A model generated the notes under the pieces. The model saw nothing but the letters and a program-made list of their open reading frames with translations. It searched no databases and was not told the origin of the DNA. Positions 43 through 57,200 of a DNA stretch of 64,000 nucleotides are shown in pieces (positions within the stretch are counted from its first letter, which is position 1; each line of letters opens with the position of its first letter). The stretch lies in NCBI GenBank assembly GCA_000146465.1, contig CP001943.1; one strand, written 5' to 3'. Made by a program: the position numbers and the translations under genes.

Positions 43-1239
43 ATGCTTATTGAAGGAACAGTGGCAACACCAATAGAGGAAGAGAGATTAATATTTTTGT
101 GCATGGCTTTGGGGATCCGACTGGAAGAGGCTGTTAGGAAGTGCAGTGGGATAGTTCAGGATAGCAAGTCTATAGGATATCTGGGAGTTGTTTCCTTTCG
201 ATATCTGCTGTCTATTGGCCACTACACTGTCATTGATCCGGGATACATTAACAGAGGAAACCCTGGATCATTTCTTGCAATGGTGTATCTAAGCAGATGT
301 ATTGATAACAGTGGTGCTTTGGAGTCTCTTGAGTCCTATTCAACAAGATATGGAGAGGGGAACCCGGAAGCATGCAGGAAGATTGGAGGTCCTGAGAATT
401 GCGCAAAGATCATGAGCCATCTAATGAAGTTTCTTAGAGATAACATCGAAGATGAATTTTCTTCACAATTGGTTCAGAAAGTGGTTAGAATCTGCCCTTC
501 TTCTGTAAGTCCCGAGGTCGTGAGGTTTATCGATGAATTTGTATGGAAAAATGTCAGGAATATCAATTCACCTCAAGCTTATGGATATCTACTTGATGTG
601 CAAGGACTTGTTTTTCTGAAGACAGGAGACAATACCTGGATTCTGAATCTTGTGCAGGTTGTGCTAAGCGAAGAGATATTCGAAATATATTCCTCTTCAC
701 TATTTCTTCTTGCCATTGTTGTTCTGCACTCATCTGGAGACTTCTCACCTGTTGTAGAAATAATAAGACAGGAGAGCCTGTGGAAAACTAAGGAGCTTCT
801 TCTAAGTATGGTTTGCCTTACAGTATCCCTTTTCAAGACGGGGAATTGCAGCAAGGAGCAGGTGGACTACATTGTTGAGTATCTGCTAGGAGTCAGCATT
901 CATCATGCCTATGTTCTTCTCACCAACACAGTTGTTTCGGGAGATTATCTGAAGTGGATCAAGGGAGAAAACATAGAAGAGGAATTTGTGCTAGCTTGTG
1001 CACTGAAGAAAAGGGGCTTGATCAGCGAAGAGATGTACAAGGAGATATACACCAGGAGTCTTCAGTATTTTGAAAAGAATTTTGTGTCGAAAAGAAATGC
1101 CCGGCGGGTTCTGAGAGGGCTGGGATATGGGATGGAAAGCTTTGGGAGGAGTGAAGCTTACGGGGTAATGGAAAGAAACAAACACAGTATAGGCTATGAA
1201 AACATTCCTTTCAGTGTAGCCGTTGCCTTTGAGCTCTAA
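43..1239 (+). CDS. Hypothetical alpha-helical repeat protein. The frame is open back to position 1, so the gene may be 5'-partial, although ATG 43 is preceded by a GGTTTTTGG...GGGG promoter-like motif.
   Basis: 398-aa ORF in a dense, gap-free gene array. The helical, low-complexity-free sequence gives no confident family assignment by eye. Confidence 0.45.
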   Translation: MLIEGTVATPIEEERLIFLCMALGIRLEEAVRKCSGIVQDSKSIGYLGVVSFRYLLSIGHYTVIDPGYINRGNPGSFLAMVYLSRCIDNSGALESLESYSTRYGEGNPEACRKIGGPENCAKIMSHLMKFLRDNIEDEFSSQLVQKVVRICPSSVSPEVVRFIDEFVWKNVRNINSPQAYGYLLDVQGLVFLKTGDNTWILNLVQVVLSEEIFEIYSSSLFLLAIVVLHSSGDFSPVVEIIRQESLWKTKELLLSMVCLTVSLFKTGNCSKEQVDYIVEYLLGVSIHHAYVLLTNTVVSGDYLKWIKGENIEEEFVLACALKKRGLISEEMYKEIYTRSLQYFEKNFVSKRNARRVLRGLGYGMESFGRSEAYGVMERNKHSIGYENIPFSVAVAFEL

Positions 1240-2664: not shown

Positions 2665-4113
2665 TTAGAGCCTGGAGATGTATTCCTTTATATCCGAAAC
2701 CCAAGCGTCTCTTTCCTTTTCACAGGTGGTGTATAACTCCACTCCCTCTCCAGATCTTTCAAGACAGAAGCCGACTTGGCCAATGGGCAAAACATTACAG
2801 TTACTAAGAAGAAAGATCTTGTAGACTCTGCTCTTCTCATAACATATAAGAGCCTTTCCAACAAACTTAAAAAGGTATGCCTTCCATCCATCCTTGTCCA
2901 TCAAGAGATACGAAGATCTGAGCAGATGGGTACTGGAAATGTCTGAGAGAATGAAAGGCTGTAGCTGCTTATCGGTCATCTCCGAGTTTAGCGCGATTTC
3001 TATTGCTCTATCTCTTGCTCTTCTATCTTGTGGAGACATTGCGTTTGCTAGTGTTGCACATCGGATACCGGGGAAAAGTGTAGAAATATCCTTTATGGTC
3101 TTGCATATTATCCATTTTATGTCCGACTCAACTGTGATGTAGTACTTGGTTGTTTCGGCTGAACCTTCGTAACATAGTACAGTGTTAGAGATCCTGATTT
3201 GAGGATAGATTGTTAGTTTGCGGCCAGGAGCATAAAGATTTGAAGCCATTTGGGAGTTCCGAGTTTCTGACCAGCTGTGAGAAGCCCCCTTTAGATTACC
3301 TTCGGGTTTTTCGATCGTATTCTCTGGCTTGGACATGGACTTTACATACATCACATCGATAGGAGCAAAGGTTGGAGACTTCCCTGTTCTAGTATACAAA
3401 AAGCTGGGTCCTTGATACGAGGTTTTGCTCGACAAGCTAAGAGAACTTGCGTTTGATAAGGGATTACTAAATACAGATTTGGAGACAGAGAGGTCTTCTT
3501 CTTGGGCTTCCTTTTTGCCAAAAGGACTTGGCGAAGTTCGGTTTCTTCTATTTCCAAAGCTGCCGGAATTGGATGGAGCTTCTCTATTGAAAATAGAGCT
3601 GCTCGCTATTGATCTTACATAGCCCACTTTGGATCCTCGATTGATGGAATCCTCAACGCTTCCCTTATTCATACCATACGAGCTGAAGTCTATAGACGAT
3701 TTTTTGTAAAGATCCATTCCCACCATCGATCCCTTGGATATGTCTTTATGGGCCGGGCTCCTATTCATAGCTCCAGAAGAGTTTACTTTCCATGGAATCA
3801 CTCCTCCAATAAATCCATCCCTCATCTTTGTACTATTTACATCACCAGAATTGTTTTTTGGAATGCCATCTGCAGCTCCATTCTCATTTGAAAAGTCCTT
3901 GCTCTTGCCAAAGTAGTTTGCAGGAGATTCTAGCTTAACATTTCTGTTGAATACAAATCCACTTCCAACACAAGCCCTTGCCTTAAACTCCTCATTGATC
4001 CTTCTTAGCTTCTCATCCATCGATCCCATCGACAACCCTCTTGCATCCCTAAACTTTCCTTCCGGTTCTTCTGCAGCAGGAGACAGGTATGAGTTCAAAG
4101 AGTCTTTTCCCAT
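2665..4113 (-). CDS. Ser/Asn-rich protein with a C-terminal PH-like domain
   Basis: 482-aa ORF. The C-terminal about 100 aa (…GKALICYEKSRVYKIFLL…LERSGEGVELYTTCEKERDAWVSDIKEYISRL) has a PH-domain pattern. Upstream ATATTTAC...CCC motif. Confidence 0.45.
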   Translation of the reverse strand: MGKDSLNSYLSPAAEEPEGKFRDARGLSMGSMDEKLRRINEEFKARACVGSGFVFNRNVKLESPANYFGKSKDFSNENGAADGIPKNNSGDVNSTKMRDGFIGGVIPWKVNSSGAMNRSPAHKDISKGSMVGMDLYKKSSIDFSSYGMNKGSVEDSINRGSKVGYVRSIASSSIFNREAPSNSGSFGNRRNRTSPSPFGKKEAQEEDLSVSKSVFSNPLSNASSLSLSSKTSYQGPSFLYTRTGKSPTFAPIDVMYVKSMSKPENTIEKPEGNLKGASHSWSETRNSQMASNLYAPGRKLTIYPQIRISNTVLCYEGSAETTKYYITVESDIKWIICKTIKDISTLFPGIRCATLANAMSPQDRRARDRAIEIALNSEMTDKQLQPFILSDISSTHLLRSSYLLMDKDGWKAYLFKFVGKALICYEKSRVYKIFLLSNCNVLPIGQVGFCLERSGEGVELYTTCEKERDAWVSDIKEYISRL

Positions 4114-4198: not shown

Positions 4199-6397
4199 TT
4201 AATATTCTTTCGCTGTTGTTAACAGTCTACAGATATCCTCAACAGGGTCTACAAATATCTTTCTCCTATACACTTCGTGGCAAAGCTCTTCAAAGAGCTC
4301 TCTTGTATCGTCGTCCACAACCATGTTCAGGACAGAAGTTCTGAGATAATCGATTGCCTTCTCTTCGTCGATCCCAAGAAGATAGAGGTATTTATGTTTC
4401 CTAACCAGAAACTTTGAGAGATGGCGTATCTCTTTGTTTGTCTTCTTTTCAAGCCTAAACACCCACATGTCATTTACGCGCCGGTCTACCTTTTCGGAGA
4501 TATTCCCTCCAAACAAGTAAAACCATCCATCCATCTCTACAAACTGGTGTGCGGACCTTGGCGCCGGTTTGATATCCACTCCGGCTTCTGTTCTTGACTT
4601 CACCACCACTTCAGTCCATTTCTTCTTAATCAGAGAAAAGGTATATACATCTATGTTTTCAAATCTTCCTTCCTTCTCTTTTCCATGGCAGAAAAGAACA
4701 ACAATCTCATTCAAGTACAGAAGGCCCCTCTGGACAACTCTTCCCTCTCCACTGATTGGGAATGGCACACTTTGGAAAACAGTGTCTGTGTCCAGTCTGT
4801 AAAAGACCATTTCTCTCATCGAGCTTTTGTTCTTCTGCCCTCCTATGACTACAAGGCTATTGTTGTAGATGCTACCCTCGATATAGTCAGGGGGAATAAA
4901 CACCATACTATGCTCCAGTCTTGACTTCAGAGAGGGAGTGCTTGAAGGTTGCATTGTATCCGACCTTATTACCATCCACCTGCTCCTAAACAAACTCGAC
5001 GACGATGTTGAAGGTTCATGGCGGGAGTTGGATTCATCTAGCATATTTTCCTGGGAGATCCCTGTTCCAAATGATGGAGAAATCTCAGCCATACCGGGAG
5101 ATCTCTTCTCTTTTCCGCCGAATTGGCCGCAAGTCCTGTACCTTCCATCTGTCTCTGAGATGGGCTTTCCAACTTCATTTGTTCTTCCACACTTTCCCAA
5201 GACCTCCATCCCATAGCCCAGGGATCTTTCGTCAAGTGAAAACATGTAAAGTCCAGAGTATGTGTCTTCCTTCTCTGTAGATCTTCCTCCGAACACATAT
5301 AATTTATCTCCCACAACAACCATCTGATGATCATATATGTTTCCCGGTCCTCCCTCTTCGTCCGAGTTAATCACCCTCCAGTTTCCATCGAAGACCCATA
5401 TGTCTGATTTCCCTGAAAAGACCTTGCGAGAGGATAAGCAGATATATTTCCCCATCAGATAAAGTTTCGACCCGTATGAAACCATTCGGTGGCAACTTCT
5501 TTTCCCTGGTGATACTGTATTCATCTTAATCTCACTCCATTCTCCGCCTCTGTATCTCCAGAAGTCCTCTAGTTCTTCCACTCCGTTCCATCCCCCGTAA
5601 AGATACAAACTCCCATCCATTTCAACCATTTGATGTCCTCCTCTTTCGCAAGGCCATACCTCGGCTCTTGGTATCTCTGTCCACACCAATGAATAGGGAG
5701 AACTATCTATGAATCCTTGGAAGACACACGGATCTAACCTATCCAGTACTTCTTCTGTATCCTCGTACTTATGGCTTTCCAGCAGGTGCCTTATGTGCTT
5801 TACAATTTCGTCTTCTATTTTATCGGAGCTTCTTTTCTCGAGAATCTCATAAACATCTCTAAATCCACAGTCTCTCAGGAATTTCAGGCAGTTTCTCATG
5901 GATTTCCCAAAAATAACCATTTCATTGTATCTTGCAAATTTCTCGACATCGGCTATTCCTCTCAGCTCGACAAACCATAAAGAGTAGCTGAAGTTGACTC
6001 CCCATGCAGCAAGAGGCTCAATCTTCACATACTGGGCAATGTAATATGTCTCATCCTTTACAAGGAGATTAAAGGTCTCCATTTCAGAATCGTTTTTTAG
6101 GCCTCCGCACAAGACCTCTTTGTACTCGACGCCATCTCCGGAAACGCTTATTCTCATCTTTTTAACATTCGATACATGCATCTTGTTGTACTTTCCAAAT
6201 GTAATGGTCACCACAAGGCTTGGAGGGATCTTTAAGATGATATATTGGAGATGATCGTTAGTTGATGTCGACCATCTTGAGTTTGGATCCATGGGGTCAT
6301 TCTTTTTGATATTGCTTGGCATGTATACAGAGGCATATGTTGAATAGCTGTGTATCTCATAGGGAATCACGGTGTAAGACCTTCTATCATTCAACAT
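4199..6397 (-). CDS. MKLN1: Muskelin-like protein: discoidin domain, LisH/CTLH and Kelch repeats (CTLH/GID E3 complex component)
   Basis: N-terminus matches the muskelin discoidin region (…NSRWSTSTNDHLQYIILKIPPSLVVTITFGKYNKMHV…). A LisH/CTLH-like stretch follows, then GGHQMVEMDGSLYLYGGWNG and multiple Kelch blades (KLYVFGG, FYLFGG). Upstream CAAAATGTT...CCCC motif. Confidence 0.8.
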   Translation of the reverse strand: MLNDRRSYTVIPYEIHSYSTYASVYMPSNIKKNDPMDPNSRWSTSTNDHLQYIILKIPPSLVVTITFGKYNKMHVSNVKKMRISVSGDGVEYKEVLCGGLKNDSEMETFNLLVKDETYYIAQYVKIEPLAAWGVNFSYSLWFVELRGIADVEKFARYNEMVIFGKSMRNCLKFLRDCGFRDVYEILEKRSSDKIEDEIVKHIRHLLESHKYEDTEEVLDRLDPCVFQGFIDSSPYSLVWTEIPRAEVWPCERGGHQMVEMDGSLYLYGGWNGVEELEDFWRYRGGEWSEIKMNTVSPGKRSCHRMVSYGSKLYLMGKYICLSSRKVFSGKSDIWVFDGNWRVINSDEEGGPGNIYDHQMVVVGDKLYVFGGRSTEKEDTYSGLYMFSLDERSLGYGMEVLGKCGRTNEVGKPISETDGRYRTCGQFGGKEKRSPGMAEISPSFGTGISQENMLDESNSRHEPSTSSSSLFRSRWMVIRSDTMQPSSTPSLKSRLEHSMVFIPPDYIEGSIYNNSLVVIGGQKNKSSMREMVFYRLDTDTVFQSVPFPISGEGRVVQRGLLYLNEIVVLFCHGKEKEGRFENIDVYTFSLIKKKWTEVVVKSRTEAGVDIKPAPRSAHQFVEMDGWFYLFGGNISEKVDRRVNDMWVFRLEKKTNKEIRHLSKFLVRKHKYLYLLGIDEEKAIDYLRTSVLNMVVDDDTRELFEELCHEVYRRKIFVDPVEDICRLLTTAKEY

Positions 6398-6546: not shown

Positions 6547-8055
6547 ATGAAATTGGAATTACATATGGTAGATGAAGGGGGAAGAAATGAGTCTGTTGGA
6601 TTTGATAGAGGAAAAGCGTCGAAGAGGCTTCTGTGGGTAGGAAGTGATTCTGAAGTTCGGGGAAGGTCGAGTCTTCGGAAGGAGAAGGGAGGGATTGCCA
6701 GGGGCCCAGAGAAAAGTAATCAGCACTCTGGAAATGACAAGAACGAGACGGTATCTCAAGACTCCAAGGAAGAAGAGAAGGCGATTGCAACAGAGGATGG
6801 AGACAGCAAGGTTAGGACGAGTGAGAAAGTGAAAACATTAAATTCGTTCAAGGACCTCTCCTCTCCATCTCTGGTAAAGGTGCTTGGAAGAGAATACACT
6901 GCGCCCACAGTCATACAGAAGTACTGTATACCATCGATGGTTGATGGAAGAAATCTCCTCTGTAGAGCACCGACGGGAATGGGAAAGACGATGTGTTTCC
7001 TAATCCCGATCATAGAAAGATATCAACAAATGAACAAGCCACAGGCATGTATTATCTCGCCAACGAGAGAACTATGCGAACAAATTCGAACGGAGGCTTC
7101 CAAACTTGTGGTTGGGAGTAAGATTCGGGTGGTGTCTATCTACGGCAAGAAGCAGGATCTTCCTAGCTATGCTGGAGTCGACATTATAGTTGCAACACCT
7201 GGAAGGCTGATAGATCTATTGCACAAAGATAAGGTGGATCTTTCTGAAGTAAGGATGTTTGTCCTCGACGAGGCGGACAAGCTTCTGGACATGGGATTTG
7301 AGATGCCTATAAGGGAGATCCACAAATTTGTTCCTAAAAACACACAGACATGTCTCTTCAGTGCCACGTATTCACCAAAGCTTACGAGGATGATAAACTA
7401 CTTTCTCCCTGACGACAAAGTCTCGATAGAAATTCCCTCTGAGACTCTTAAGAACATCCGGCAGGACATTGTGGAGGTAAGGAATAAGAAGAAAATGCTT
7501 CTTAATATCTTAAGGAGCTCGGAGATCAATCTCAAGGGGTCATGGAGGATGGAAGTGCAACCCGATAAAGTGCTTGTTTTTGTTGAAAGAAAGAGCGAAT
7601 GCGGGGAGGTTGAGAAGACCCTAAAGAAAAATGGGATCCTCTGTGTTACTCTGCATGGAGATAAGGAGCAGTCAGATAGAAACGAGGCATTGAAAGGGTT
7701 CCGTAATGGAAGATTCCCTGTGATGGTTGCAACCTCGGTGGCAGCCCGGGGTATAGATATCAAGGATGTAAAACTGGTGATAAATTACGACATTCCGAAA
7801 GACATAAAGGAATACATCCATCGGATAGGACGTACCGGACGAGAAGGGAAGTCTGGGAGGTCGATATCGTTTTATGATGGGGGAATGAGTGCTGATTTCA
7901 AGAAAGCATTGATAGAGGTCTTGAAAGAGTCCAAGAACCCCATTCCTTCGTTTCTGAGCGATACTGCTGAAGACTTTGATGCCAGGCTTCAAAGATTGAA
8001 GGTAAGTGCTGATAAGGAGATGTCGGATGACGAAGAAGTCGGGCTGTGGGGATGA
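6547..8055 (+). CDS. DED1: DEAD-box ATP-dependent RNA helicase, Ded1/DDX3-like
   Basis: Motifs APTGMGKT, PTRELCEQI, DEAD, SAT and HRIGRTGR are present. The block LVFVERK…HGDKEQSDRNEALKGFRNGRFPVMVATSVAARGIDI is DDX3-like. Start set at ATG 6547 (ATTTTTTTATCCC immediately upstream) rather than the track's 6517. Confidence 0.85.
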   Translation: MKLELHMVDEGGRNESVGFDRGKASKRLLWVGSDSEVRGRSSLRKEKGGIARGPEKSNQHSGNDKNETVSQDSKEEEKAIATEDGDSKVRTSEKVKTLNSFKDLSSPSLVKVLGREYTAPTVIQKYCIPSMVDGRNLLCRAPTGMGKTMCFLIPIIERYQQMNKPQACIISPTRELCEQIRTEASKLVVGSKIRVVSIYGKKQDLPSYAGVDIIVATPGRLIDLLHKDKVDLSEVRMFVLDEADKLLDMGFEMPIREIHKFVPKNTQTCLFSATYSPKLTRMINYFLPDDKVSIEIPSETLKNIRQDIVEVRNKKKMLLNILRSSEINLKGSWRMEVQPDKVLVFVERKSECGEVEKTLKKNGILCVTLHGDKEQSDRNEALKGFRNGRFPVMVATSVAARGIDIKDVKLVINYDIPKDIKEYIHRIGRTGREGKSGRSISFYDGGMSADFKKALIEVLKESKNPIPSFLSDTAEDFDARLQRLKVSADKEMSDDEEVGLWG

Positions 8056-8133
8056 TGTTTCTTTTGGTTAATGGGATAATAAATACTGGTTGGCAATTTA
8101 TGTTAGGAAAACTGGCCTTGTGTTTTCCAATCT

Positions 8134-8988
8134 ATGTTGTGGACAGAAAAGTACAGGCCTAAGTCTGTGGACACATTTGAGGGTCCTGAGCATCTCAAGA
8201 GCATTTTAAGAAACTCCAGCGAGAGAGGACATCCGAACCTCCTTCTGTATGGACCACCTGGGACAGGAAAGACGACCTTTGCCCATCTCTTGGCAACCAG
8301 GAAGCTGGAGCTTAATGCATCTGACGAAAGAGGCATATCTGTGATAAGAGAAAAGATCAAAGTGTATGCATCTACACTGGAAAAGGACAAAACAGTAATA
8401 CTCGATGAGTGCGAAAATCTCACGTCGGATGCACAGCATTGCCTGAGGAGAGTTATTGAAGATTCTGTGAACACCCGCTTCATATTTATTACAAACTATC
8501 CATCGAAGATCATCGGGCCCTTGAGAAGTAGATTGGTAGGAGTGAAGTTTACACTTGCAGATAATAGGGTTCTTGAGGGCATAGGAGGCAACGAAGGACT
8601 AGGCTACGACAAGGAGCTATATCGCAGACTTTTTAAGCTCTGTGGAAACGACTTAAGAAAGGCAATCAATGTGCTTCAAGGCATTGCTCCCCTGAGCAGC
8701 TTCTGCATTGAAGAGGCCGTTGGAAGTATTCCTCAAAAGACGGTGGATGAGTTTTGGAAAGTAGGAAGGGCAGAAGTTATGGATTACTCGAAGATGTTCC
8801 TGAGAGACGGATACTCTGCACTTCAATTGGTTCGGCAGCTGGCTGGGTGCTGGAAAGGAAGCGATGCCCAGTCTGCAAAGTTTCATCTTCTGCTCTCGTC
8901 GCTTGAAGAGAAAGCGGTCTTGGGATGTTCGGATGAGTTAGTCTTATATAATCTCCTGGGAGGAAAGGTTGAGATTTTTAGCCAATAA
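8134..8988 (+). CDS. Replication factor C small subunit (clamp loader AAA+)
   Basis: Contains [33 protein letters not shown], a Walker B ILDECE, and the SRC-like PLRSRL. Shortened to 284 aa. Confidence 0.8.
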
Positions 8989-9028
8989 ATGGAGTTGTTG
9001 ATATTTAATGAACATAAGCTCAGTCCGG

Positions 9029-9451
9029 CTACCTTTTGTTCAACATTTTCATTAGTCTTGCATAATATCCCCATCTTGCTAGATATTCCCCACTTGGATT
9101 GCGCTTGCACTGATCAATCTTTTTCTCCAAGTCCTCTTTGATTCTGTTTCTATCTTCATTGTTCTTGGCATTCGAAATCGCTTGCTCGTAGTCCAGCACG
9201 TCGATCAAAAACTCCTTCCCGACATCGATATTTCCTGGATTGTTCAAGTATCTTGCCCTGGAGAGATCGTTTTTTAATGTGTCGTAAGCTTTGTTTATTT
9301 CCTCCATTGATATGTCTTCTCCTGAAGGACTTGCTTTGTCTGGATGGAATTTTCGACTCATCTTGTAGTATCTCTCCTTCAAGACATTCTGGTCGATGGC
9401 GAACGAAGGCTTGAGTCCAAAGATGTCGAAGTATCTTGATGGACTTCCCAT
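9029..9451 (-). CDS. JAC1: J-domain co-chaperone, HscB/Jac1-like (Fe-S cluster assembly)
   Basis: N-terminal J domain (YFDIFGL…YYKMSRKFHPDK) followed by a short helical C-terminal domain typical of HscB/Jac1. 140 aa. Confidence 0.6.
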   Translation of the reverse strand: MGSPSRYFDIFGLKPSFAIDQNVLKERYYKMSRKFHPDKASPSGEDISMEEINKAYDTLKNDLSRARYLNNPGNIDVGKEFLIDVLDYEQAISNAKNNEDRNRIKEDLEKKIDQCKRNPSGEYLARWGYYARLMKMLNKR

Positions 9452-9481
9452 CTGTGTGGGTGATAGTAGAGTTGAAATGGG

Positions 9482-37058: not shown

Positions 37059-37847
37059 ATGGATTTTGTTCCTCCAGCCAAGCAGAGAGAGCTGAGGTCT
37101 GCACTCGAGAAGATAGAGTCCGGCATAGTGGTGGTCCACGGGCCTCCGGGGTCTTCGAAGACTTACAGCATAGAGAGGACGGCTCAGGGCTTGGGCTTGT
37201 CCATAGAATATATCGAAGATGTCGGGATGTACAAAAGTATGCTTCCCATCCGGAATGCCATATGTCTTACAGACATGGATGACTATGAATACTTGTCCAG
37301 GCATAGAAAAAGACTGGAGAAAATGAAGAACTTGGTGATTGAGACTAGAACATTGTTCTCCATTGGGAAAATACTTCCAAATGCCACCATTGTGAATTTC
37401 GGAAAGATCTCAAGTAGGAAGATCCAGAAGTTTTACAATCTAAATGAAAAGGAGGCTTTGAAGGTGGGAGAAAACCTCCATGCTGTTGGGTTCTGTAAGT
37501 ATGGTATAAGAAGCGAGACTGTTTCAATATTCCATCTACTTGGAAAGCTGTTCCACTCGAAAGAAACAGATGTCCCAAAGGCTGCCGAAATGATCAATGT
37601 GTATGGGCGAGACCGATTTATTGGGTATTTGATCGAGAACTGCACATCTTTCATGTCTATTAAAGACATTCACAAGCTTATCGATGGAATTAGCCTTGAG
37701 GACATAGGAGAAATGCATCTGGAGCATTTGATTTGGGTGGTTTTGAGCTCGGTGAAGGTAGGCCCAAGGAGGTTTTTCAGCTTCCGGTCGTGGAAGGGGG
37801 CCGTCTTAAGTGAGCACACATGTAGCAACCTTTGCATGAACAGATAG
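37059..37847 (+). CDS. AAA+ P-loop ATPase, Rad17/Rad24-like checkpoint clamp-loader subunit (tentative), shortened
   Basis: …QRELRSALEKIESGIVVVHGPPGSSKTYSIERTAQGLGLSIEYIE… parallels Rad17 …LLLTGPPGCGKTTTIKILSKEHGIQVQEWINP. 262 aa. Confidence 0.45.
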   Translation: MDFVPPAKQRELRSALEKIESGIVVVHGPPGSSKTYSIERTAQGLGLSIEYIEDVGMYKSMLPIRNAICLTDMDDYEYLSRHRKRLEKMKNLVIETRTLFSIGKILPNATIVNFGKISSRKIQKFYNLNEKEALKVGENLHAVGFCKYGIRSETVSIFHLLGKLFHSKETDVPKAAEMINVYGRDRFIGYLIENCTSFMSIKDIHKLIDGISLEDIGEMHLEHLIWVVLSSVKVGPRRFFSFRSWKGAVLSEHTCSNLCMNR

Positions 37848-37909: not shown

Positions 37910-38590
37910 ATGAGTTTTTCCAAGATCAAGCCGAAGTCTTACGAGGGAAAAATGGAAGAGTGGTTGTCTGCAATCAGCATGAAGGTTACTGACCTGAACA
38001 GTCTGGTTCTCGACTACCTGGTCCATGAGGGACTAGGGGATATTGCAGCAGAGTTTGCAAGAGATGTTGGATTGCCTTTTACTGCATCTTCATTTCTGAG
38101 CCATAGAACACGGATAAGAGATGCAATTGAAGAGGGAGATATCAAGAAAGCCATATCGAGGATAAACGATCTGAACACGGAGATAATTGATGGGAATATT
38201 GAGCTGTACTATTTCCTTATGGAACAGAAGGCATGCGAACAAGCACAAGCGATAAGAAGCGAAGGAGAAAGCACAGAGGAGCAGAAGGTGTTTATTCTCC
38301 TTGAAGAAGTTCTTGAGTTTATACGTTCTGAGCTGTCGCCGATTGTTGAGGAAAACCCAGCCTTGGGGCCGCACTTTGAGGACCTCCTTGAGTTTGTTGT
38401 GTTCAACTCTCGGAAAGAGGCTGTGGTGGAGAGGAGGAGGAGGTTGGCAGAGTATATCAACAGGAATATACTGGAGAAGTACGAAGTAACGGAAAACGAG
38501 CTAAAGAAAGTTCTTGACGGAATTGTAAAGGGCGAAAGATTGCTGACGGAGAAGTACAAGTTCCCCACATTCAACGAGTCATTTATATGA
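37910..38590 (+). CDS. GID8: Gid8/TWA1-like LisH-CTLH-CRA protein (CTLH/GID E3 ligase core)
   Basis: LisH (LNSLVLDYLVHEGLGDIAAEFARDVGL), then CTLH (…RTRIRDAIEEGDIKKAISRINDLNTEIIDGNIELYYFLMEQK…), then a CRA-like C-terminus. Confidence 0.7.
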   Translation: MSFSKIKPKSYEGKMEEWLSAISMKVTDLNSLVLDYLVHEGLGDIAAEFARDVGLPFTASSFLSHRTRIRDAIEEGDIKKAISRINDLNTEIIDGNIELYYFLMEQKACEQAQAIRSEGESTEEQKVFILLEEVLEFIRSELSPIVEENPALGPHFEDLLEFVVFNSRKEAVVERRRRLAEYINRNILEKYEVTENELKKVLDGIVKGERLLTEKYKFPTFNESFI

Positions 38591-44906: not shown

Positions 44907-45380
<474 letters not shown>

Positions 45381-54164: not shown

Positions 54165-54223
54165 AGAAGGGACTTTCCTCCCAAAGGATTTATTACACTG
54201 GGGGCTTCTTGAAGCCCTTGGAC

Positions 54224-57200
54224 ATGAACCGGAACTATTTGAAGAACCTCTATCTCCAGCAACTCGAATCGGAACGGTATTCAGATGTATTCCGAGAAAG
54301 CCTACATAGCCTAGTGTCTGTGGAAATAATGAATACCGTTATACTCTTGGCTGTTAAGGATGATGACGAGGATGCACTCATCGATCTTCTGGAGTTGTTT
54401 CTGCAACATCTAGAGACCAACCCTATATTTTATGAGAAACTTGGGAAATCAAACCTTCACTTACTTCTGTTGGAACGTCCACTGAGGATGCAGAGCTACA
54501 CAAAACTAAAGTTGGTTTATGATAAGGTTAGGCCCAAGAGAACTCCACTAAGCTTTGAGCATACAGAGTTTCTCGCCAAAAACTTTTACAATTACTGTCT
54601 CTACAAGTACGCATACAATGATTATCAGTTCGACCTTGAGATGTCTGTGGAAGGATTTGGGCCGGTGGAGATGAATTTGTTCAAAGATCTCCTTAGGAAG
54701 ATATGCATTGAAAATAGAGAGAACGAGCATCTTGCTAATTATGTAAGAACTCTTCCCATGGACACAAATGTCTTTCTTGCTATAGTGGAGCCGGATTTCA
54801 AGGTAGATGCATCGAAGCTTGAGCCAGAGGATTTATTTGTTGTGTACCCAGCTCAGGTCCAAAGATGTAACCTGGGCTTGTTTACAAAGCCATTTCTTTG
54901 CAGTTTGAACTCTAAGGAGGGTCTTTGCAGAGTTTGTGGGAGAAGAGTTCTAGAATACCACTTTGAGGAGATCGACCACGAAGAATACCTGGAAAGTATA
55001 GCAGGAAATATCAAAGAGATATGTTTTGCTGTAAGTCATTGGGAAAAGGCCAGAACGCCTCGGGTGCTTATAACTGTTCTCAGGTCTCTGTTCAAAGGAT
55101 GCGAAGATCTCGAATGTTACAAATCCCTAAAGTACTTTCCGGTGAAAGAGGAGAGCGATATGGAGGATATAGTTGTAAAGTTCTTAAGATATGCAGCAAG
55201 CACATTGAACATTGAGAACATCCAGGTATCCCTCAGGATGCTTCCGTTTACAAGCCACACCCCAAAAGTAATATTTTCATACTTTGTTATTTTATTTGAA
55301 AGCTTACGAAAGTATCCGGAAAATGGGTTTTTGAGAAGCATAGTAAAGAATGTGGTGATGAGGAACAAGGACAAATTTATGAAGATAAGAGCAATGATAT
55401 TTGAATACTATATGAAGGGGGACGAAGAGTCGGTGTTTGACATTCCAAATAGAGAAAAAGAGGGAAGAGGCTTGAAGGATGGAAAGGACTTTAATACAAG
55501 CATAAGCGATAGACTTGAACGTAGACTTGCACCGTTGTCTGAATTCTTCAGCGAGGAGTGCGGATCTTTCGTTAAAAACAACATGTTCTACATATATCCT
55601 ATCATATACTCACTATGGCTTCCTCGTTGCACCCAGGATCTTGGATTTACTCAGGCAAATAACCACTTTCTAGTAATATCGCTTTGCCTCCAAGGGGAAG
55701 AAAGCAGAATAGATGAAATAGGATATGAAAAAGACGAACTGTATGGAATGGGGGTTGATGTAATTGTTCCCCTTTTGTGCAACGGATACTTCAAATATGA
55801 TATTCTGGAAAGGTTTTTTGGGGATACTCGGAAGTATATAAGCATCCACTTACCGAAGTTTTTATTTGCATTGAAGAAGGTGTATGTAGAAAGACCTTTT
55901 GAGTTTCGAGTATGTGTGTTTAAGGTTCTGAAGTGCATTATAGATGCAATTTCCAACAATGTGAAGATGTTGTTCAACTATCTATTTCCGTTTGTGGAGT
56001 TCTTTATGAGAAAACATGAAGACTCGTGTGGAATGGATTGCAAGATGATTTTCATTGAGTATTATTCATCATTTTTTGAGAACGATTGTTTTATCCGAAA
56101 CATGCCCAGGATATTTCCATATTTAGACGTTGAAAAGATAGTGAAGTGGAGCAATGCAAAGAATGAGGAAGACTACCTGGATATAGTCCTTGGGCTTTTG
56201 AACACCAAAGGGCACTTTTCACAGGAAATGGCCACCTCTAAAGCGGTGGAACTTCTTACAAGGGTCTTTGGAAGTATAGATAAAGATGGAGTGCTTGATG
56301 AAGAAAGCTTTGTGGAAAACATTCTTACCCGATTCTTTAAGAGCCCTACGTTTAGAATTAAGGTTGGGAGTATCTACAGGCGACTTAGAGAAGTGGAAAG
56401 TGATGCAGCATTCCTGATTGGATGTATATCACAGGAGTTTCTGGAACCAGAGATCCATCCCTCTGTCTGTGACGTTCCTATTATGGGGAATACTCCGGAA
56501 GCAATTGCTAGAGTGATGATTGAAAGGTATCTACTCGAGATAGATCCTGGAAAACAAGATCTTCATTTTTTCATAATACAGGAGACTTTAAAGTTTATTA
56601 GAGGGCCTTTAAGCGACAGTATAGAAGAAGTTGTTGATCAGTTTAGAAACACACAGTATCTCTATGAGCACGTGCCTACATATTCAACGGAGAAGTTGTA
56701 TGAAAAGACACATACATTTAAGAAGTTCCTCGAAAGGCTGTATCGGCACACCCTCTCAGAAGTTGAAAGGAGGAACAAAAAGGAATATTTTAATCTTCTT
56801 AGATATGGAGATCTGCTTGGGATTCCGTTTCTGGAGTTCCATTGCTTGTCCCTGTGCAGGCTACTTCTAGATTCGGGAGACAGCAGAGTTGCAGGGATTG
56901 CACAGAATATATCCCAGGACCTCGAGGGGGGAGTGGACAGAAAGATTGCAAGGTTTGTTCTGAAACTACACAGGTTCACAGAAGGGAAGTATGTTCCAGA
57001 TCTTGTGATACTCAGGATATCTATTTTTCTCAAGGACCATTATAACGCTATCCAGGTTTTAGAGAAGATGATAAGAAAAGAAAGGAGAAGGGATCTCTTT
57101 GATCTCCTCCAATACAACTACTATTGGATCAAGGACTATGACAAAGTACTAGGAATAAACTCGGTATTTGGGAGACCAACACTGATCAACCTTTTTTTTG

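Follow-up and report, generated by a model that had tools for sequence, protein, structure and literature searches.

We found that a 64-kb stretch of chromosome II of Encephalitozoon intestinalis ATCC 50506 (the window, to which all positions below refer) encodes orthologues of muskelin and of Gid8/Twa1, which are probably non-catalytic subunits of a slimmed-down RING ubiquitin ligase of the CTLH/GID type. The subunits of GID/CTLH ligases are Gid1/RanBP9, Gid2/RMND5, Gid8/TWA1, Gid9/MAEA, Gid5/ARMC8, Gid4 and Gid7/WDR26 or muskelin, and in mammals muskelin (MKLN1) is both a substrate-receptor and a supramolecular-assembly component of the CTLH E3 ligase. The orthology of both proteins is correct, with sequence, profile and predicted fold in its support, and the match scores greatly exceed what chance would give. 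The finding is largely ordinary and has precedents: both genes had been annotated previously, and a 2013 publication had reported CTLH components in microsporidia.

4199..6397, minus strand: muskelin orthologue, 732 aa, intact ORF with an ATG start; exact match to GenBank ADM11060.1
37910..38590, plus strand: Gid8/Twa1 orthologue, 226 aa, intact ORF with an ATG start; GenBank ADM11094.1, Eint_020960

The GenBank product names are 'muskelin N-terminus domain-containing protein' and 'CTLH domain-containing protein', respectively. A distance of 31 kb separates the two genes, whose neighbours are unrelated housekeeping genes, so genomic context is uninformative.

Domain architecture of the muskelin orthologue

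The 732-aa frame, whose translation includes the quoted peptide NSRWSTSTNDHLQYIILKIPPSLVVTITFGKYNKMHV, had been read as muskelin-like in the initial annotation, and our searches bear this out. Pfam returned Muskelin_N (PF06588; E=2e-86, 289 bits) over aa 8-197, covering profile positions 2-197 of 197, together with several Kelch families (E 1e-33 to 1e-13) and F5_F8_type_C. A sequence search of the PDB identified human MKLN1 (8ttq_A, E 3.4e-83), aligned over aa 10-373 and 461-700, and 8ttq was also the best PDB match (E 4e-44) to the AlphaFold model, which has the muskelin domain layout. Every module of the animal protein is kept: discoidin, LisH, CTLH, kelch propeller and C-terminal CRA-like helices.

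5954..6376, minus strand: discoidin (F5/8 type C-like) domain, aa 8-148; Muskelin_N and F5_F8_type_C matches, beta-sandwich in the model
5702..5947, minus strand: LisH and CTLH helices, aa 151-232; MKLN1 alignment and five model helices
4454..5680, minus strand: Kelch beta-propeller, aa 240-648; Kelch Pfam families and model strands
4985..5224, minus strand: disordered Ser-rich insert within the propeller, aa 392-471; pLDDT 22-34
4229..4438, minus strand: C-terminal CRA-like helices, aa 654-723; alignment with a verified human C-terminus and model helices

The discoidin domain matched the crystal structure 4pqq with a TM of 0.83 and 44% identity, and Foldseek matched the model to the kelch domains of LZTR1 and KLHDC2/3/10 with TM(target) of 0.7-0.8. 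The LisH and CTLH segments were less straightforward. Of the domain matches looked for, Pfam gave Muskelin_N and Kelch in this protein and LisH and CTLH/CRA in Gid8, but its separate LisH and CTLH models produced no match to muskelin at E<=1. The sequence does align collinearly through the LisH (172-204) and CTLH (206-258) of human MKLN1, and this homology, with the predicted structure, points to a LisH/CTLH segment that separates the discoidin domain from the propeller. With the whole Muskelin_N profile covered and these helices in the alignment and the model, the N-terminus is of the muskelin type and not that of a generic discoidin/kelch protein.

Mammalian muskelin (MKLN1; PDB 8ttq, 4oyu, 4pqq, 9snv) has the same domain order and nearly the same length (735 vs 732 aa). 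The discoidin domains are 39-44% identical, and the LisH/CTLH segment, the propeller (predicted to be six-bladed) and the CRA-like helices all have counterparts, although overall identity is only about 27%. The alignment is collinear except for the 80-aa propeller insert of E. intestinalis, which is lineage-specific: it is 70-92 aa long in Encephalitozoon and Ordospora, compared with 8-17 aa in full-length sequences from the other microsporidia, chytrids and animals. The tail behind the CRA helices is also much shorter in E. intestinalis and lacks the 'FFPDSMxxPKxNLxDL' end, which chytrids and animals have, as does one other microsporidian lineage.

Substrate pocket and docking helix of muskelin

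In MKLN1, propeller residues W291, Y346 and R517 recognise substrate C-termini (PMC12871134). The corresponding W270, Y318 and R557 of E. intestinalis are kept in nearly all microsporidian sequences aligned. The muskelin-specific docking signature is an aromatic residue right behind the conserved Leu of the second CRA helix, and docking roles have been assigned to F686 and Q679 of the human protein (PMC13061415). Human L685-F686 aligns with V709-Y710, so that in E. intestinalis too an aromatic directly follows an aliphatic residue of the docking helix, and either F or Y occupies the F686 position in all named microsporidia aligned; the lineage P0028-P0031 has lost the docking residue. The residue aligned with Q679 is E703; outside vertebrates R, K, E or H occupies this position, and we rejected it as a conserved docking residue. 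Conservation of the pocket and of the docking aromatic supports a muskelin function that is likely to have been retained.

The 226-aa protein and its interface residues

Assignment of the second frame to the LisH-CTLH-CRA proteins of the Gid8/TWA1 type, also proposed in the initial annotation, was upheld. Pfam matched LisH (4.7e-6, aa 28-51) and CTLH/CRA (5.2e-8, aa 65-196), both above the gathering scores, and a PDB sequence search found human Gid8 at E 2.3e-13. A profile built from the Gid8 clade matched Twa1 over its full length (1.5e-24), whereas RanBP9/10 and Vid30 were matched through LisH-CTLH only, at 3e-5 to 2e-3 (RanBP10 3e-5, RanBP9 2e-4, Vid30 1e-3), and MAEA and RMND5A were not matched by this profile at all. 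The model is all-helical (pLDDT 83), with Twa1 (9soc_B, TM 0.66) as the top PDB match in Foldseek. The domain order is LisH-CTLH-CRA, with no SPRY, RING or WD40 domain. By sequence, profile and fold the protein is thus nearer to Gid8/TWA1 than to the paralogues RanBP9, MAEA and RMND5; we also considered a RanBP9 that had lost its SPRY domain and rejected it, Twa1 being the best match by profile and fold.

37991..38062, plus strand: LisH motif, aa 28-51; Pfam LisH, model helices 26-39 and 43-53
38102..38497, plus strand: CTLH-CRA(N) domain, aa 65-196; Pfam CTLH and alignments
38498..38557, plus strand: CRA(C) cross-over helix, aa 197-216; model helix collinear with the C-terminal helix of Twa1

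Compared with the known structures (PDB 9soc_B, 7nsc_H; yeast 6swy_8), the protein has almost the same length (226 vs 228 aa) and the same succession of LisH, CTLH, CRA(N) and CRA(C), with no extra domain, but only about 27% identity. An acidic insert of 14-16 aa lies between CTLH and CRA, and the six-residue 'PFGDLL' fold-back loop (Twa1 159-164), which holds F160, is deleted from microsporidian Gid8. L160 and F165 correspond to Twa1 L147 and F152 and are invariant Leu and Phe in the clade alignment. Arg139, likewise invariant, sits at Twa1 Q126, while Val and Leu take the places of Twa1 R26 and F42. Of the Twa1 residues, L147, F152 and F160 accompany MAEA/RMND5A binding and exclude muskelin, and R26 hydrogen-bonds Y382 of RanBP9. 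A reading of the Arg at Q126 as specifically RanBP-like was rejected because MAEA has Arg aligned there also.

It could be argued that both assignments are wrong and that the frames code for generic kelch/discoidin and LisH proteins or are decaying pseudogenes. The missing Pfam LisH and CTLH matches in muskelin and the disordered insert that breaks its propeller would fit such a reading. Against it, both reading frames are intact, muskelin is collinear with MKLN1 save for that insert, the Muskelin_N match spans the whole profile, the functional residues vary little or not at all, muskelin orthologues of sister species are 77-79% identical, and Gid8 finds its best match in Twa1 in sequence, profile and fold. 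The frame, profile, residue and orthologue tests refute mis-annotation or decay, which we consider scarcely credible.

Distribution in microsporidia and other fungi

In an exhaustive HMMER scan, at least eight genera of microsporidia proved to have muskelin, the names including Vairimorpha necatrix, V. ceranae, Nosema bombycis, Astathelohania contejeani, Spraguea lophii and Edhazardia aedis. Muskelin identity to E. intestinalis was 77-79% in Encephalitozoon spp. and 55-56% in Ordospora, and Gid8 identity over the Encephalitozoon/Ordospora clade was 45-84%. Retention of muskelin together with Gid8 in a very reduced genome, as pointed out in the initial annotation, is confirmed. Its accompanying remark that muskelin is absent from most Dikarya is an overstatement, since many Basidiomycota (Agaricomycetes, Ustilaginomycotina, Exobasidium) carry muskelin; Schizosaccharomyces pombe is also among the carriers listed by Francis, Han and Adams (2013, PLoS One 8:e75217; PMC3797097).

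That survey was the only publication we found on CTLH or muskelin in microsporidia. There, muskelin is described as opisthokont-wide and, among fungi, as having a narrower species range than the other subunits. E. cuniculi and other microsporidia are reported to encode MRCTLH components while lacking FBPase; the available text names no microsporidian subunit set (PMC3797097). We found no expression, interaction or knock-out data on microsporidian CTLH genes in the literature.

Search for the remaining CTLH subunits and the proposed function

Phmmer queries with Gid8, muskelin and the human proteins RMND5A and MAEA (these two identical to PDB 8pjn_b and 8pjn_i) against all 181 ORFs of 60 aa or longer in the window gave nothing below E=0.08. 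Pfam searches of 40 further window ORFs gave no CTLH, RING-Gid or SPRY domain, and no catalytic RING subunit was seen among the window ORFs that lack a Pfam match. RING subunits (RMND5/MAEA), RanBP9 and SPRY proteins were all absent from the window and from about 10 kb on each flank; UBE2H/Ubc8-type E2 enzymes and the ARMC8-GID4 and WDR26 receptors were absent from the window. A homology query with Gid8 (E<=10) recovered 14 close orthologues only, the recall of this search being poor for divergent paralogues: it seems to be seeded on rare words and misses proteins that have 10 exact 5-mers in common with the query. The alignment-based search with muskelin added almost no further matches. In the literature we found no statement on RMND5 or MAEA in Encephalitozoon. 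Separately, two E. cuniculi proteins, ECU07_0330 (a RING finger protein) and ECU04_1490 (LisH and WD40), are leads for further CTLH subunits.

Of the defining LisH-CTLH-CRA subunits of the yeast GID and human CTLH complexes, two are present and conserved in E. intestinalis, but the window holds only these two, and the classic yeast substrate FBPase is absent. If the solved human and yeast complexes are a guide, muskelin would dimerise via its LisH, capture substrates with its propeller and be held by its CTLH-CRA helices on a LisH-CTLH-CRA scaffold, which Gid8 would join to an RMND5-MAEA RING pair. With a UBE2H-type E2, this pair may ubiquitylate the substrate. Gluconeogenic enzymes are excluded as the targets, since microsporidia lack FBPase (Francis et al. 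2013). Several findings count against a ligase: no RING subunit appeared in the window, its flanks of about 10 kb or the Pfam-less ORFs; RanBP9, the only known docking partner of muskelin, is reported missing; and Gid8 lacks Twa1 R26.

The first of these would be explained if the RING subunits had been lost and the two proteins had taken on roles outside a ligase, for example muskelin as a self-associating cytoskeletal or vesicle-transport adaptor and Gid8 as a LisH dimer scaffold. There are precedents: ligase-independent roles of muskelin are reported in animals (PMC2518711), and Twa1 is reported to homodimerise on its own (PMC5234100). However, the residues that are conserved are those that matter in the ligase context, namely the C-degron pocket of the propeller and the CTLH-CRA docking helices, and Gid8 has no known function outside the CTLH complex. 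Among CTLH subunits, RMND5, MAEA and TWA1 have the broadest conservation in eukaryotes, and Francis et al. single out RanBPM alone as missing in microsporidia. That no RING subunit was seen is, moreover, a matter of search reach, the window plus about 10 kb of each flank having been covered. We therefore regard loss of the ligase as quite improbable and favour the assignment of muskelin and Gid8 to a CTLH-type ligase.

Muskelin docking and the reported absence of RanBP9

The initial annotation expected RanBP9/Gid1 to be findable elsewhere in the genome. This is partly contradicted by the sole published survey, which reports that RanBPM (RanBP9) was not identified in microsporidia (PMC3797097). 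That muskelin keeps the RanBP9-docking aromatic despite this reported absence, while Gid8 has lost the F160 loop, is the mildly novel point of our analysis. The 2013 survey predates the structural docking code and so leaves aside the attachment of muskelin without RanBPM.

If RanBP9 has truly been lost, Gid8 might dock both muskelin and the RING pair, and four kinds of subunit (muskelin, Gid8, RMND5 and MAEA) would suffice. Several features of microsporidian Gid8 are in keeping with this. Twa1 F160 is reported to clash with muskelin (PMC13061415), and the loop that holds it is gone. The invariant Arg stands at Q126, one of the two most critical substitutions for Twa1-muskelin binding, and engineered Twa1 variants bind muskelin at about 150 nM, one of them binding Maea and muskelin (PMC13061415). 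R26, which in Twa1 contacts RanBP9, is missing as well. On the other hand, Twa1 L147 and F152 accompany MAEA/RMND5A binding in mammals (PMC13061415), and Gid8 keeps Leu and Phe at these positions. RanBP9/10 instead have Phe and Tyr there, which contact muskelin by pi-stacking and hydrogen bonding; with Gid8 as the docking partner, the aromatic residue that microsporidian muskelins conserve would have nothing to stack against. Arg at the Q126 position is shared with MAEA and so is not RanBP-specific, and the absence of RanBP9 itself depends on a BLAST-based survey from 2013 with strict domain criteria. On balance, true loss of RanBP9 with docking through Gid8 seems unlikely. It is just as doubtful that microsporidia have a naturally minimised ligase of this kind in which the C-degron pocket would be the main or only substrate receptor and there is no gluconeogenesis to regulate.

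Implications

As they stand, these results matter little beyond confirming the existing annotation and the phylogenetic survey of 2013. The label 'metazoan-specific', given to muskelin in recent structural papers, is contradicted by the microsporidian and fungal muskelins. Judging from retention and residue conservation, a CTLH complex, if E. intestinalis has one, may be indispensable, as the initial annotation proposed. That muskelin has been kept, with its pocket and docking residues intact, in a phylum that is known to discard genes speaks for an ancient core function that has nothing to do with gluconeogenesis and may be the link to ribosome biogenesis proposed for human muskelin. If the absence of RanBP9 is true, microsporidia would reveal the smallest size at which a CTLH ring still works, and a ring in which Gid8 docks muskelin would be nature's equivalent of the Twa1 variants engineered in work published in 2026.

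Identity of the two proteins

The window, which an exact match places on chromosome II of Encephalitozoon intestinalis ATCC 50506 (G+C ~43%), is densely filled by short housekeeping genes without introns. The features concerned are as follows.

Features of the window
4199-6397, minus strand: muskelin, 732 aa
37910-38590, plus strand: Gid8/Twa1, 226 aa
39386-40903: Sel1-repeat protein, just downstream of Gid8
44922-45380: ubiquitin-S27a fusion
54209-59647: ATR-like PI3K-related kinase
60292-62418: MCM helicase

We found that the 732-aa protein (ADM11060.1, labelled 'muskelin N-terminus domain-containing protein' in GenBank) is a genuine muskelin, as the initial annotation had proposed; the peptide cited there is present in the translation. 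It matched Pfam Muskelin_N over the entire profile (2e-86) as well as several Kelch families, and human MKLN1 was its closest solved relative in a PDB sequence search (8ttq_A, 3.4e-83). The alignment with MKLN1 was collinear over residues 10-373 and 461-700, covering the discoidin, LisH, CTLH, kelch and C-terminal regions. An AlphaFold model made from an input alignment of 15 microsporidian sequences (pLDDT 71) consisted of a beta-sandwich (1-148), five helices (151-232), a propeller (240-648) and four helices (654-723). Foldseek ranked MKLN1 first for this model (4e-44), and the discoidin domain alone matched the muskelin discoidin structure 4pqq with TM 0.83 and 44% identity. The claimed discoidin, LisH/CTLH and Kelch layout was seen in both alignment and model. 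The Pfam LisH and CTLH models gave no match, despite good alignment of this region with the human LisH/CTLH helices.

The sole large deviation of E. intestinalis muskelin is a disordered Ser-rich insert of ~80 aa within the kelch propeller (aa 392-471; window 4985-5224, minus strand; pLDDT <35). It is confined to Encephalitozoon and Ordospora, where it spans 70-92 aa; full-length muskelins of other microsporidia, of chytrids and of animals have 8-17 aa in its place. Such an insert is unusual in a lineage known for protein shortening.

The 226-aa protein (ADM11094.1, 'uncharacterized protein Eint_020960 / CTLH domain-containing protein') is Gid8/Twa1, again in agreement with the initial annotation. 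Pfam LisH (4.7e-6) and CTLH/CRA (5.2e-8) both scored above thresholds, and human Gid8 was the top PDB sequence match (2.3e-13). A profile of the Gid8 clade (13 members) matched Twa1 over its full length (1.5e-24), whereas RanBP10, RanBP9 and yeast Vid30 were matched only in the LisH-CTLH part (3e-5 to 2e-3); MAEA and RMND5A were not among its matches. The model was all-helical (pLDDT 83, pTM 0.75), with Twa1 (9soc_B, TM 0.66) as best fold match, ahead of RanBP10 and yeast Gid8. The full-length profile match and the best fold rule out a truncated RanBP9.

None of the nearby Sel1-repeat, ubiquitin-S27a, ATR-like kinase and MCM genes, with roles in proteostasis, the ubiquitin system or housekeeping, is tied to CTLH. 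The immediate neighbours of muskelin (2665-4113, minus strand, 482 aa) and of Gid8 (37059-37847, plus strand, 262 aa) had no Pfam match at E<=0.01; the latter carries the P-loop GPPGSSKT. The ORF at 43-1239 (plus strand), also lacking a Pfam match, is only the 3' portion of a 718-aa gene beginning left of the window (7716-9872 of that flanking locus, L005).

Distribution of muskelin

A word-indexed homology search returned muskelin orthologues from E. hellem and E. cuniculi (77-78% identity) and Ordospora (55-56%), and full-length-coverage orthologues at 35-38% identity on several more contigs, two of which have an extreme gene density like that of microsporidian genomes. Matches outside microsporidia came from chytrids, Zoopagomycota, many Basidiomycota and invertebrates. 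Recall of this search is partial for distant relatives and apparently relies on rarer words: the vertebrate cluster representative was missed despite 10 shared exact 5-mers, while matches sharing only 4 were returned. An exhaustive HMMER scan with a microsporidian muskelin profile added clusters scoring at or above chytrid level, mostly already labelled 'Muskelin', from Vairimorpha necatrix, V. ceranae, Nosema bombycis, Astathelohania contejeani, Spraguea lophii and Edhazardia aedis. Muskelin was thus found in at least eight microsporidian genera, and these named proteins make its retention phylum-wide, which strengthens the argument drawn initially from the retention of both subunits in so reduced a genome. 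The accompanying statement that muskelin is absent from most Dikarya was too strong, since many Agaricomycetes and Ustilaginomycotina have it; no Ascomycota were among the named matches of the word-indexed search, with its partial recall.

In a eukaryote-wide survey of all CTLH components, Francis, Han and Adams (2013; PMC3797097) found muskelin restricted to opisthokonts and present in fewer fungi than other subunits. RanBPM, by their account, 'was not identified in ... microsporidian fungi'. They also noted that components of the complex are encoded by microsporidia, E. cuniculi for example, despite a lack of FBPase. CTLH components in microsporidia were therefore already known from this survey, and the two genes of the window from GenBank annotation; our literature search found no other paper connecting microsporidia with muskelin or CTLH. 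A 2026 eLife structural paper states in its Introduction that muskelin 'appears metazoan-specific' (PMC13061415). An opisthokont-wide distribution had been stated before that in the 2013 survey, and the presence of muskelin in chytrids, Zoopagomycota, Basidiomycota and at least eight microsporidian genera contradicts a restriction to metazoans.

Other subunits of the complex

No RMND5/MAEA RING subunits were found in the 64-kb window or its flanks. Candidates for further CTLH parts come from a structure-based re-annotation of E. cuniculi (PMC10759460): ECU04_1490, a LisH and WD40 protein that could be WDR26/Gid7-like, Lis1 or TBL1, and ECU07_0330, an uncharacterised RING-finger E3-like protein. 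The initial interpretation is thus partly supported; identities and retention were right, the Dikarya claim was overstated and a complete E3 is unproven.

Substrate pocket and docking of muskelin

Human muskelin reads substrate C-termini via propeller residues W291, Y346 and R517 (2026 preprint, PMC12871134). They correspond to W270, Y318 and R557 of E. intestinalis. Almost every microsporidian muskelin examined keeps the three residues; Spraguea has F at the first two. In docking on RanBP9/10, muskelin F686 pi-stacks on RanBP9 F576 and Q679 hydrogen-bonds Y581, and the signature specific to muskelin is an aromatic immediately following a conserved Leu (PMC13061415). With reference sequences verified against PDB, human L685-F686 aligns with V709-Y710 in E. 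intestinalis, and every named microsporidian muskelin has F or Y at the F686 position; the Q679 position varies beyond the vertebrates, with E, K, R or H there. Judged from this conservation of pocket and docking aromatic, substrate face and docking helix are under constraint.

In one further lineage (P0028-P0031; L002 8001-10423 and L004 4069-6240), presumably microsporidian because it is very gene-dense, Lys-Leu replaces the aliphatic-aromatic pair. These muskelins retain a long C-terminal tail that is lost in Encephalitozoon, and both loci have a CHY/RING zinc-finger gene two genes downstream. One copy lies on a contig of 1.9 Mb that carries the flag UNVERIFIED_CONTAM and belongs to the assembly of the louse Menopon gallinae (GCA_040285465.1).

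Muskelin might instead be docked directly by Gid8, in a ring lacking RanBP9. The inability of Twa1 to bind muskelin is ascribed to its L147, F152 and F160, which take the place of F543, Y548 and V556 in RanBP10; eight substitutions, Q126R and F160V among them, convert Twa1 to muskelin binding (PMC13061415). Microsporidian Gid8 is Twa1-like at positions 147 and 152 (Leu and Phe). The six-residue fold-back loop 'PFGDLL' bearing F160 is absent, an invariant Arg occupies the Q126 position, and R26, which contacts RanBP9 Y382, is missing, all in favour of such a ring. However, Arg at the Q126 position is shared with MAEA, and no stacking partner would be left for the conserved aromatic of muskelin, so that the sequences are only weakly compatible with a ring of this kind. 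Between CTLH and CRA, microsporidian Gid8 also has an acidic insert of 14-16 aa; insert and missing loop map to aa 113-175 (window 38102-38497, plus strand).

An overlooked divergent RanBP-like protein is more likely than direct docking by Gid8; a RanBP9-less architecture, if true, would be of modest added value. The constraint on muskelin is what would be expected if it still functions within a CTLH-type assembly.
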